Shown here: positions 22,337 through 52,661 of the stretch, in pieces
Layout: the number at the start of each line of letters is the position of its first letter
Position numbering within the stretch: position 1 is the stretch's first letter
Assembly (NCBI RefSeq): GCF_057098645.1
Contig: NZ_CM169472.1
DNA: 64,000 nt
Reading direction: 5' to 3' (one strand)
Made by a program: the position numbers and the translations under genes
Notes under the pieces: model-generated
The model's input: only the letters and a program-made list of their open reading frames with translations
Database searches by the model: none
Told to the model about the DNA's origin: nothing

Positions 22337-22436
22337 AACAAAAACTTTATATAGAGTGCTCTTTTTACAATGTCAGATAAATGCTGGCCGAAATGTAATT
22401 CATTAGAAGTAAAAAACAGAATGGTTTGAGGGTGTG

Positions 22437-22480
22437 TCATCCCTTTATTATTAATAGTGAAAGGGATGACATTCTTTTTT
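22437..22480 (+). terminator. Rho-independent terminator downstream of tfa
   Basis: 11-bp stem GTCATCCCTTT / AAAGGGATGAC with a 12-nt loop, followed by ATTCTTTTTT. Confidence 0.7.
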
Positions 22481-22676
22481 AAGGAGTGTCTTTTTTATCG
22501 GAATATAAGTTGAGATAATGTTTAACTCGATTATAAAAATGTTTTTTCTTATCTCTTGGAATGCTTACTATTATATGCATTATGGGGCTTGTGTTTGCCG
22601 ATAATTTAGCTGATGCATACATTGAAGCAAGGAATTCAATATCAGTATTGTCAAAATTAAAACTTTCTCCATCCAT
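22479..22676 (-). CDS. Hypothetical 65-aa protein (orphan moron ORF)
   Basis: ORF in low-GC DNA with a plausible SD (AAGGA 8 nt before the ATG on the minus strand). No recognisable motif. Confidence 0.35.
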   Translation of the reverse strand: MDGESFNFDNTDIEFLASMYASAKLSANTSPIMHIIVSIPRDKKKHFYNRVKHYLNLYSDKKDTP

Positions 22677-22982
22677 TTCAATTCCTTATGTGTTTGGCTC
22701 GGTATACTGTATCCCATGAGATTTTACGTAAATTGTCATATCTAATATTGCAATTATAATTGTAGCTAATTATTTTAAATTAGGTGAAAGTTTATTGCGA
22801 ATGATTAACTCGGAAAAAAAGATTTCTCACGGTTAGTAAGTATATTAGGTCAGTATTCAGATATGAGTAGTGTTAACGACTAAATTTGCAATCACATATA
22901 GATTTTTGTTCTAATAAAGATGTTTTATTTGGCGATTCGTCAAGCATCTCCACTTAAGCAATCGTATATATTAAGAGTGCAA

Positions 22983-23078
22983 AAGAGAAGGGACAACGTT
23001 GCTCGCACTCTGGAATAAATATCGGGTATTGTTAAAGTGTGGTGATACATAATTGTACGGGATATTGAGTGGCCTGAA
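22983..23078 (+). pseudogene. Decayed second copy of the tfa 3' end
   Basis: CTGGAATAAATATCGGGTATTG...GATACAT...GATATTGAGTGGCC aligns to the tfa 3' end at about 22240-22330 (CTGGAAGCATGGAAAAAGTATCGGGTATTG...GATACATCA...GATATTGAGTGGCC), but with an in-frame stop and an indel. Confidence 0.5.
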
Positions 23079-23213
23079 GTCCCAGTCATTGAGTAATCTT
23101 TTCGTGATATGCCGCAGAAACGTTGTATGCAGGAACGTGCTGCGGCTAACTGGTGAACTTTCGATAGTGCGGGTATTGAATGATTTCCAGCCGTTACCGA
23201 TTTTACGTGCTAA

Positions 23214-23462
23214 TTAGTGAACAAACCACTCGTCAGCAGACTCCCAGGTATCTTTCAGAGTTTCCTGAACAAAAGTTTTAGCTGAATCTTTATCGGCAGT
23301 GCGCGTAACAGAAAGGCCATCGTTGCTGGTGGTTTTTACGATCACCTCTACATCGTCATAACGCTTACTGATGCGTCGAGTTAATTCTTCCTTTAACGCA
23401 TCCACAGCACCGTTTGGCATTTTAGTCATTTTCTCTTTGGCTATGCAGATCTCAATACGCAT
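23214..23462 (-). CDS. DinI-like SOS protein
   Basis: 82 aa. The N-terminal MRIE..IAK and C-terminal [16 protein letters not shown] match E. coli DinI (MRIEVTIAK ... ILQETWESADDWFV). SD GAGGG upstream on the minus strand. Confidence 0.85.
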
Positions 23463-23475
23463 AAAAATCCCTCTA

Positions 23476-23495
23476 CACTGTGTTTGTATACAGTA
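23476..23495. promoter_or_regulatory. LexA box 1 (SOS operator) upstream of the dinI-like gene
   Basis: CACTGTGTTTGTATACAGTA, which fits CTG-N10-CAG and the consensus TACTGTATATATATACAGTA. Lies 16 bp upstream of the dinI-like start. Confidence 0.7.
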
Positions 23496-23503
23496 TTATT
23501 TTT

Positions 23504-23523
23504 AACTGTATGAATAAACAGTG
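23504..23523. promoter_or_regulatory. LexA box 2 (SOS operator)
   Basis: AACTGTATGAATAAACAGTG, fits CTG-N10-CAG. Its centre is 28 bp from box 1. Confidence 0.65.
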
Positions 23524-23681
23524 TCAATAGAACAAAGATTGCTGCATGTACAAATGTTCTTTGGCTACAAATACACCTACTGATCATGTTCTGCTATGCT
23601 CTGATACCTCCAAAATGTACAATCAGCGGCATGAATTTTTCTTTGTACATATGATTGTACATAATCAAAGAGACAACAATT

Positions 23682-25268
23682 ATGACAAGCCTTTTGGCCG
23701 CAGAGGTAGCGAAAAGAAGAACCTTTGCAATTATTTCTCACCCGGACGCCGGTAAGACTACCATCACCGAGAAGGTGCTGCTGTTCGGACAGGCCATTCA
23801 GACTGCCGGTACAGTAAAAGGCCGTGGTTCCAACCAGCACGCTAAGTCGGACTGGATGGAGATGGAAAAGCAGCGTGGGATCTCCATTACTACGTCTGTG
23901 ATGCAGTTTCCGTATCACGATTGCCTGGTTAACCTGCTCGACACCCCGGGGCACGAAGACTTCTCGGAAGATACCTACCGTACCCTGACGGCGGTGGACT
24001 GCTGCCTGATGGTTATCGACGCCGCAAAAGGTGTTGAAGATCGTACCCGTAAGCTGATGGAAGTTACCCGTCTGCGCGACACGCCGATCCTCACCTTTAT
24101 GAACAAACTTGACCGTGATATCCGCGACCCGATGGAATTGCTCGATGAAGTTGAGAACGAGCTGAAAATTGGCTGCGCACCGATCACCTGGCCAATTGGC
24201 TGCGGCAAGCTGTTTAAAGGCGTTTACCACCTTTATAAAGATGAAACCTATCTCTATCAGAGCGGTAAAGGGCACACCATTCAGGAAGTCCGCATTGTTA
24301 AAGGGCTGAATAACCCGGATCTCGATGCTGCGGTTGGTGAAGATCTGGCACAGCAGCTGCGTGACGAACTGGAACTGGTTAAAGGCGCGTCTAACGAGTT
24401 CGACAAAGAGCTGTTCCTTGCGGGCGAAATCACTCCGGTATTCTTCGGTACTGCGCTGGGTAACTTCGGCGTTGATCATATGCTGGATGGCCTGGTGGAG
24501 TGGGCGCCTGCGCCGATGCCGCGTCAGACCGATACCCGTACCGTAGAAGCGAGCGAAGATAAATTTACCGGCTTCGTATTTAAAATTCAGGCCAACATGG
24601 ACCCGAAACACCGCGACCGCGTGGCGTTTATGCGTGTGGTGTCCGGTAAATATGAAAAAGGCATGAAACTGCGCCAGGTGCGCACTGCGAAAGATGTGGT
24701 GATCTCCGACGCGCTGACCTTTATGGCGGGTGACCGTTCGCACGTTGAAGAAGCGTATCCGGGCGATATCCTCGGCCTGCACAACCACGGCACCATTCAG
24801 ATCGGCGACACCTTTACCCAGGGTGAGATGATGAAGTTCACCGGTATTCCGAACTTCGCACCAGAACTGTTCCGTCGTATCCGCCTGAAAGATCCGCTGA
24901 AGCAAAAACAGCTGCTCAAAGGGCTGGTACAGCTTTCCGAAGAGGGCGCGGTGCAGGTGTTCCGTCCAATCTCCAACAACGATCTGATCGTTGGTGCAGT
25001 TGGTGTGCTGCAGTTTGATGTGGTGGTAGCGCGCCTGAAGAGCGAATACAACGTTGAAGCAGTGTATGAGTCAGTCAACGTTGCCACTGCCCGCTGGGTA
25101 GAATGTGCAGACGCGAAGAAATTCGAAGAGTTCAAGCGTAAGAACGAAAGCCAACTGGCGCTTGATGGCGGCGATAACCTCGCTTACATCGCTACCAGCA
25201 TGGTCAACCTGCGCCTGGCACAGGAACGTTATCCGGACGTTCAGTTCCACCAGACCCGCGAGCATTAA
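23682..25268 (+). CDS. prfC: Peptide chain release factor 3
   Basis: 528 aa with the GTPase motifs [12 protein letters not shown] and DTPGHEDF. Beyond the first ~9 residues it matches K-12 RF3 as I recall it. Start chosen at ATG 23682 (MTSLLAAEV); the ORF-track start at 23655 is an extension. Confidence 0.95.
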
Positions 25269-52451: not shown

Positions 52452-52661
52452 AAAATATCCTCATCCTTTCAACAACGAGCACCTGACATCAGGTAATTGG
52501 ATAATAGCATTTTTTGCTGTTTTAGCATTCAGTGTTTTTTTCTTAGTAGAGTATGTTTTAGGTCTTGACGGAAATAAAAGTATTGAGATTTTGTTCTTAA
52601 TCAATATGTTATTTACCGTGACGAACTAATTGCTCGTGTAATAGATAAAAATGGTAACAAT

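Follow-up and report, generated by a model that had tools for sequence, protein, structure and literature searches.

At the right end of a lambdoid prophage, next to the gene prfC, is a small element that is most likely an autonomous prophage cargo cassette, in whose sequence a strong predicted sigma-70 promoter and two LexA operators are followed by a ribosome-binding site, one gene and a 3′ hairpin. The gene encodes a protein of the DinI family, and the reading that we favour, with a probability of roughly 0.8, is that the cassette is repressed by LexA, induced by DNA damage, and serves to restrain the co-protease activity of RecA. The element was studied in a stretch of 64 kb (64,000 nucleotides of contig NZ_CM169472.1), referred to here as the window, and positions are those of the window unless another sequence is named. 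The copy in the window is one more instance of a very common and already annotated cassette; it is ordinary because the cassette is found in a third of sequenced E. coli genomes and has relatives that are known to be LexA-controlled. What is mildly new is that the E. coli class of 82-residue proteins consistently has two strong operators and a single gene, whereas the Salmonella class has one operator and an operon.

The plus strand between positions 23476 and 23523 reads CACTGTGTTTGTATACAGTA, then TTATTTTT, then AACTGTATGAATAAACAGTG. Contained in it are the CTG-N10-CAG cores of two boxes, CTGTGTTTGTATACAG at 23478–23493 and CTGTATGAATAAACAG at 23506–23521, with their first bases at distances of 16 and 44 nt from the initiating A (position 23462) of the dinI-like gene; the initial annotation had placed two near-consensus boxes at exactly these distances upstream of a gene for an 82-aa DinI-like protein. 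The proximal predicted LexA box, O1, occupies 23476–23495 on the minus strand (gene-strand 20-mer TACTGTATACAAACACAGTG) and lies over the predicted transcription start, and the distal one, O2, occupies 23504–23523 on the same strand (gene-strand 20-mer CACTGTTTATTCATACAGTT) and fills the spacer between the −35 and −10 elements. Scored with a symmetrised position weight matrix of 23 E. coli K-12 LexA operators, of which the dinI operator alone was checked against the K-12 genome sequence, the O1 20-mer reaches 21.9 bits (heterology index of about 6.4) and the O2 20-mer 23.8 bits (heterology index of about 4.9). These values are in the range of the known recA and chromosomal dinI operators of K-12, which score 23.7 and 23.3 bits with the same matrix, the polB operator scoring 13.1 bits; the next best LexA-like site of the window after O1 and O2 has 13.6 bits.

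The 16-bp palindrome CTGT-N8-ACAG, with its A/T-rich centre, is matched twice in the 64-kb window, by O1 and O2 and by no other site. The looser pattern CTG-N10-CAG has 29 matches as against 15.8 expected, and the remaining 27 are G+C-rich and do not resemble LexA sites. No LexA site of at least 18 bits arose in any of 60 dinucleotide shuffles of the window, and when the A+T-rich 219-bp intergenic region was shuffled 5,000 times, one such site was seen in 7 shuffles and two sites in none. Because the shuffles do not yield two such sites, a chance origin of the boxes is excluded. Both boxes share the properties of E. coli-type LexA operators, namely the palindrome, a score and heterology index like those of experimentally proven operators, overlap with a predicted promoter, and conservation despite divergence of the flanks. 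They look like working LexA operators, as had been proposed, with sequence, score, promoter position and conservation across phages all as expected, and control of the dinI-like gene by LexA is, on this basis, very likely.

The promoter that the boxes overlap begins with a −35 hexamer of perfect consensus, TTGACA (23522–23527, minus strand). Its −10 element, placed from the sequence, would lie between the boxes (23498–23504, minus strand) and reads TAAAAA if the spacer is taken as 17 nt or AAAAAT if it is taken as 18 nt; a promoter scan returned TTGACA-18-AAAAAT, with 10 of 12 matches. The −10 element of this predicted promoter is imperfect. A Shine–Dalgarno sequence, GAGGGA (23468–23473, minus strand), read from the sequence and conserved in related loci, precedes the ATG by 5 nt, and the order on the gene strand is thus TTGACA, O2, −10, O1, GAGGGA, TTTTT, ATG. 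With O2 in the −35/−10 spacer and O1 over the predicted start, both operators are placed where a bound repressor excludes RNA polymerase. From centre to centre, O1 and O2 are separated by 28 bp. This distance does not correspond to a whole number of helical turns and puts the two dimers on different faces of the helix; cooperative binding of LexA therefore cannot be assumed.

The gene itself (23214–23462, minus strand) is annotated in RefSeq as ‘DinI-like family protein’ (WP_001217546.1). Its 82-aa product matches the DinI family of Pfam (PF06183) over the whole model (positions 1–63 of 63, E = 1.3e-19), PHROG 189, described as RecA filament binding protein DinI (E = 5.5e-31), and the structure of PDB 1ghh over residues 1–81 (E = 8e-13), with a further match to the DinI structure 7ywa. 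Aligned along its entire length, it shares 46% identity with K-12 DinI. The earlier assignment as DinI-like is borne out by these comparisons, from which membership of the DinI family is certain, and the fold is settled because of the sequence homology to the solved DinI structure. In the pairwise alignment with K-12 DinI the W-ESAD-WF motif is retained, and all positions matching E65, E69, E72, D75 and D76 are occupied by E or D; the acidic C-terminal helix of DinI is the surface that binds RecA, and it mimics DNA (Voloshin et al. 2001, as cited in PMC3121763).

Compared with the DinI equivalog of NCBIfam (NF007893), the product reaches 72.5 bits, short of the 111 bits that the curated threshold demands of a true orthologue, and is therefore a DinI paralogue, in keeping with its RefSeq name; as a paralogue it could differ from DinI in its activity on RecA. 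The chromosomal dinI gene of K-12 (b1061) is alike in fold family, in length (to within one residue), in the acidic C-terminal helix and in having a LexA box near the ATG, but it differs in sequence by the margin given above and has a single box, as against the two strong boxes of the cassette.

Marking the downstream edge of the cassette is a hairpin, GCCGCAG...CTGCGGC (23112–23147, minus strand), which lies about 65 nt beyond the stop codon of the dinI-like gene and is a candidate terminator. It is seen in both the minimum-energy and the centroid folds, and in the window it is not followed by a U-tract. A terminator scan of the minus strand gave no canonical intrinsic terminator after the dinI-like gene, and the 132-nt stretch folded around the hairpin is of unremarkable stability (z = −0.83). 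In other loci a compensatory change from G-C to A-T is seen at the foot of the stem, which suggests that the hairpin is under selection despite the lack of a U-tract here.

The same arrangement recurs in many phages. A scan of IMG/VR with a peptide pattern gave 191 relatives, of which 80 were kept and 57 had 100 bp of upstream sequence; the layout of −35, O2, −10 and O1 is present in all 57 of these loci, with O1 at a constant distance from the ATG, and the sequences upstream of the −35 hexamer fall into at least five unrelated classes. In BLAST comparisons homology breaks off at 23527–23531 on the upstream side and most often at 23111/23112 on the downstream side, some loci reaching to about 22997. 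As these boundaries coincide with the −35 hexamer and the hairpin, the conserved unit consists of the promoter, the operators, the gene and the hairpin. This 317-bp cassette occurs in 1,818 of 5,426 complete E. coli genomes, and a single genome can carry as many as 7 copies. The gene had been called a moron in the initial annotation, and the term is apt, as it has its own promoter and its own 3′ stem-loop, with a putative role as terminator, and is found in multiple genomic contexts.

Relatives are also encoded in 133 records of the phage collection, among them cdtI, mEp460, BP-4795, YYZ-2008 and dozens of Stx-converting phages, mostly at the genome end and frequently annotated as dinI already. 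The copies of 2H10, PhiR63_1, cdtI, mEp460 and many Stx1a-, Stx2a- and Stx2c-converting phages are at the same genome end as the copy in the window, with proteins 94–99% identical; their records name the product DinI or ‘RecA filament binding protein DinI’, and there is no material difference from the window copy. Eleven diverse relatives that were sampled form two classes, of 82 aa and 77 aa. The 82-aa class is found in E. coli phages at 60–79% protein identity, near int, att or tail fibres, and the two-box layout is kept in these phages down to 60% identity, with degraded boxes in BP-4795 (15.3 and 14.4 bits); a member of this class from Klebsiella has one box. The 77-aa class, which includes the genes of the Gifsy phages, is 37–51% identical and has one strong box and a small same-strand gene directly downstream; the latter was seen in Gifsy-1, mEp237, SEN34, pAEv1818 and the Klebsiella phage ST405phi1.3.

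Up to position 23743, the window is the right end of a lambdoid prophage, with genes for the terminase, for head and tail proteins, for a tail fibre of 1009 aa and for tail fibre assembly. The phage DNA ends in the attR core, ATTATTTCTCACCC (14 bp, 23730–23743, plus strand), which lies inside codons 17–21 of prfC and, by alignment, is common to the window, K-12 prfC and the attP of phage 2H10; records of Stx phages annotate it as an insertion duplication. To the left of the core the window follows phage 2H10 and to the right of it the K-12 chromosome, and this switch shows that the phage supplies prfC codons 1–16 (23682–23729, plus strand) and everything upstream, in agreement with the earlier view that the prfC promoter comes from the phage. 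The phage-borne 5′ end is a diverged copy relative to the K-12 version, and prfC (23682–25268, plus strand) stays intact, with 528 aa in RefSeq.

The dinI-like gene is 268 bp from the attR core and thus indeed at the prophage end, as first described. In phage 2H10 the order is the dinI-like gene (minus strand), attP and int (plus strand). The junction of dinI, attR and prfC is present in 653 of the 5,426 complete E. coli genomes, and prfC is already recognised as a prophage integration site; Bobay et al. 2013 (PMC3603311) count it among the genes that integrating prophages have ‘disrupted’. The immunity region is not part of the window and was read from strain YPE10, in which the junction is 100% identical to that of the window; the YPE10 prophage is about 45 kb long, ends at int and a 5′ remnant of prfC beside yjjG, and encodes a repressor of 224 aa, of the LexA family (YmfK-like), with a Peptidase_S24 domain.

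The boxes lie in the 219 bp that separate the divergently oriented dinI-like gene and prfC, a location that would allow control in both directions, LexA also repressing the plus-strand gene, which is prfC in the lysogen and int in the free phage, and thereby coupling release factor 3 or the integrase to the SOS response. More than 1.3 kb of sequence upstream of prfC is free of co-directional genes, so that transcription of prfC must start from a promoter in phage DNA, and one plus-strand promoter-like sequence, TCTACA-16-TATTAT (23472–23499), overlaps O1. It is, however, a weak match (9 of 12), the sole one on the plus strand to overlap a box, and the region as a whole has 7 promoter-like matches as against 5.1 ± 1.8 in shuffles, that is, no excess; a prfC promoter overlapping the boxes was rejected on these grounds. 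O2 ends 159 bp upstream of the prfC ATG, and better −10 candidates for prfC, read from the sequence, are nearer to it (TACAAT at 23618–23623 and CATAAT at 23660–23665). In 2H10, int starts about 470 bp from the boxes, past the entire attP. The boxes and the −35 hexamer, at which homology breaks, travel with the dinI-like gene into contexts that have neither prfC nor attP. Control in both directions is accordingly improbable, and the initial suggestion that LexA occupancy might influence prfC is not upheld, given the distance, the mobility of the boxes with the dinI cassette and the weakness of the only overlapping match.

Between the dinI-like promoter and the prfC ATG, the palindrome TGTACA occurs four times in 115 bp (23547–23661), out of 10 copies in the whole window. 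Phage 2H10 has four more on the other arm of attP, just upstream of int (L001 3797–3853), and the cluster probably represents arm-type binding sites of the integrase. In the lysogen these copies overlap the stretch that must contain the prfC promoter.

The best-studied relatives of the gene are those of the Salmonella prophages Gifsy-1, -2 and -3. A LexA box precedes the dinI homologue in each of the three, the DinI homologue of Gifsy-2 accumulates after treatment with mitomycin C, and the homologues head LexA-controlled operons whose second gene, for an antirepressor, brings about prophage induction (Lemire et al. 2011, PMC3121763). All three were listed as SOS genes, with 4.6- to 23-fold induction by nalidixic acid and with single boxes of heterology index 3.9–5.3; Salmonella dinI itself has a strong box and a very weak second one, with indices of 4.0 and 17.6 (Merida-Floriano et al. 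2021, PMC8072944). The Gifsy genes thus resemble the gene in the window in being prophage genes of the DinI family with a LexA box over the promoter, and they are induced by damage. They differ in that their proteins have 77 aa and are 42.5% identical to the window protein, that they have one box and not two, and that they are located in the early-right (nin) region, whereas the window gene adjoins the attP end. The Gifsy gene is moreover the first of an operon with the antirepressor gene and irsA, whereas here a single gene is found and no antirepressor.

It could still be that the dinI-like gene in the window is the first of a Gifsy-type transcript for SOS induction, the key product of which is a small antirepressor encoded downstream, as just this place is occupied by a small same-strand gene in all of the phages of the 77-aa class named above. 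All open reading frames of at least 25 codons in 22337–23215 were therefore listed in search of such a gene. The only minus-strand frames, of 49 and 65 codons, are situated 125 and 538 bp beyond the gene and outside the conserved cassette, and their products have no match in NCBIfam or PHROGs; no conserved same-strand frame, and hence no antirepressor gene and irsA, directly follows the dinI-like gene. Homology of the cassette mostly stops at the hairpin, about 100 bp beyond the stop codon, and in three of five sampled records of the 82-aa class all annotated downstream genes are on the opposite strand. An exception is BP-4795, with a same-strand gene about 155 bp downstream; the P-EibC record is partial and leaves the dinI-like frame itself unannotated, and in 2H10 a pair of minus-strand genes follows at a distance of several hundred bp. 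The S24-type repressor of the prophage is, furthermore, expected to cleave itself, so an antirepressor would not be needed. The operon reading fails because the antirepressor gene is absent, and we consider it very improbable.

The tail fibre assembly gene is separated from the dinI cassette by an A+T-rich and nearly gene-free module of 0.87 kb (22340–23205), which is about 82% identical to the tfaQ–ydfJ end of Qin-like prophages in other E. coli. The module contains the 65-aa frame, which is annotated as hypothetical. A structured RNA was considered and rejected: an Rfam scan gave a weak match to IS009, a candidate sRNA (22873–23054, plus strand; 37.8 bits as against a gathering threshold of 117), and a chance match to a snoRNA, neither of which overlaps the boxes.

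A further group of relatives is formed by Tum of coliphage 186 and the split tum genes of PSP3 and Fels-2, which are likewise LexA-controlled and have a DinI-like domain (PMC3121763). Tum, of 146 aa, joins an antirepressor half to a DinI-like half, whereas the cassette encodes the DinI domain alone, with no antirepressor nearby. For the E. coli cassette, no direct results on LexA binding or expression were found in the searchable literature, which holds indirect evidence only: in an array study the prophage dinI-like gene c0943 moved together with sulA, umuD, recN and dinI (PMC2817434), and several studies annotate the prophage dinI-like gene of E. coli as cargo.

That the boxes and the gene are functionless relics, kept by selection on the flanking att/int module, is scarcely credible: deletions of the related Gifsy genes gave no phenotype, the non-polar deletion of the Gifsy-1 and Gifsy-3 homologues having no significant effect on induction (PMC3121763), an imperfect comparison because the Gifsy phages use antirepressors and not repressor cleavage, and the boxes of BP-4795 are degraded, but the reading frame is unbroken, both operators persist at the level of 60% protein identity in several unrelated contexts, the cassette is present in one third of complete E. 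coli genomes at up to 7 copies, and conservation stops sharply at the −35 hexamer, an edge that points to selection on the promoter itself.

The scheme that we infer for the LexA-controlled cargo cassette comprises LexA binding, induction by damage, RecA binding and an effect on prophage induction. Lambdoid phages with prfC as their integration site carry the cassette beside attP and int. In an undamaged lysogen, LexA dimers would sit on both operators, covering the promoter spacer at O2 and the start at O1 and excluding RNA polymerase. DNA damage would lead to RecA filaments, self-cleavage of LexA and clearance of the operators, and the DinI-like protein would be made. By homology with DinI, this protein may bind RecA filaments through its acidic C-terminal helix and restrain their co-protease activity on slowly cleaved substrates, such as UmuD and, plausibly, the prophage’s own S24-type repressor. 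Damage would thereby induce a brake on both SOS mutagenesis and the induction of the prophage. The premise of the initial annotation that the protein could tune repressor cleavage is reasonable in light of the YPE10 copy of the same prophage, with its Peptidase_S24 repressor; the Gifsy-1 and Gifsy-3 deletions described above, which left induction unaltered, speak against it, with the reservation given there.

A more far-reaching proposal, which we regard as doubtful, is that the 82-aa, two-operator class constitutes a distinct brake, encoded by prophages, on the cleavage of S24-type proteins that RecA stimulates. In this reading the class always consists of one gene, located in E. coli lambdoid phages at the end with att or with the tail fibres. 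If it were true, the two strong operators would permit expression only once LexA is well depleted, and the phage’s own CI-like repressor, the repressors of co-resident prophages and UmuD would be protected from RecA. Poly-lysogens would then owe their induction threshold to this class, which would also reduce SOS mutagenesis. The reported statistical links of a prophage DinI-like gene with drug-susceptible ST95 (PMC10783064) or with emerging quinolone-resistance mutations (bioRxiv 10.1101/2023.06.20.545734) could have the same explanation.

The cargo cassette of the window is, as a single finding, of little weight, and the class as a whole merits more attention. It is among the commonest SOS-wired cargo genes of E. 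coli prophages, many Shiga-toxin phages included, and its effect on RecA could influence SOS mutagenesis and the induction of prophages and toxin by DNA-damaging antibiotics. To our knowledge, no phenotype has so far been assigned to any prophage DinI homologue.

Other LexA-related features were seen in the YPE10 prophage and elsewhere in the window. In the YPE10 prophage, a LexA-like 20-mer of 23 bits, CACTGTTTATTTTTACAGTA (L005 4546–4565), lies in codons 3–9 of a DNA methyltransferase gene, which is located between the Q antiterminator and the lysis genes. Within L005 17018–20845, that prophage also has a gene for the anti-phage defence protein Dsr1 (a sirtuin), which adjoins int, and, in the nin region, one for a second, small ‘LexA family transcriptional regulator’ of 108 aa. 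The third-best LexA-like site of the window, TGCTGTTTTAGCATTCAGTG at 52515–52534, is marginal and could be due to chance (13.6 bits, heterology index of about 12). It is situated between divergent open reading frames of 289 aa (minus strand) and 157 aa (plus strand), which from their size and position are probably rob and creA.
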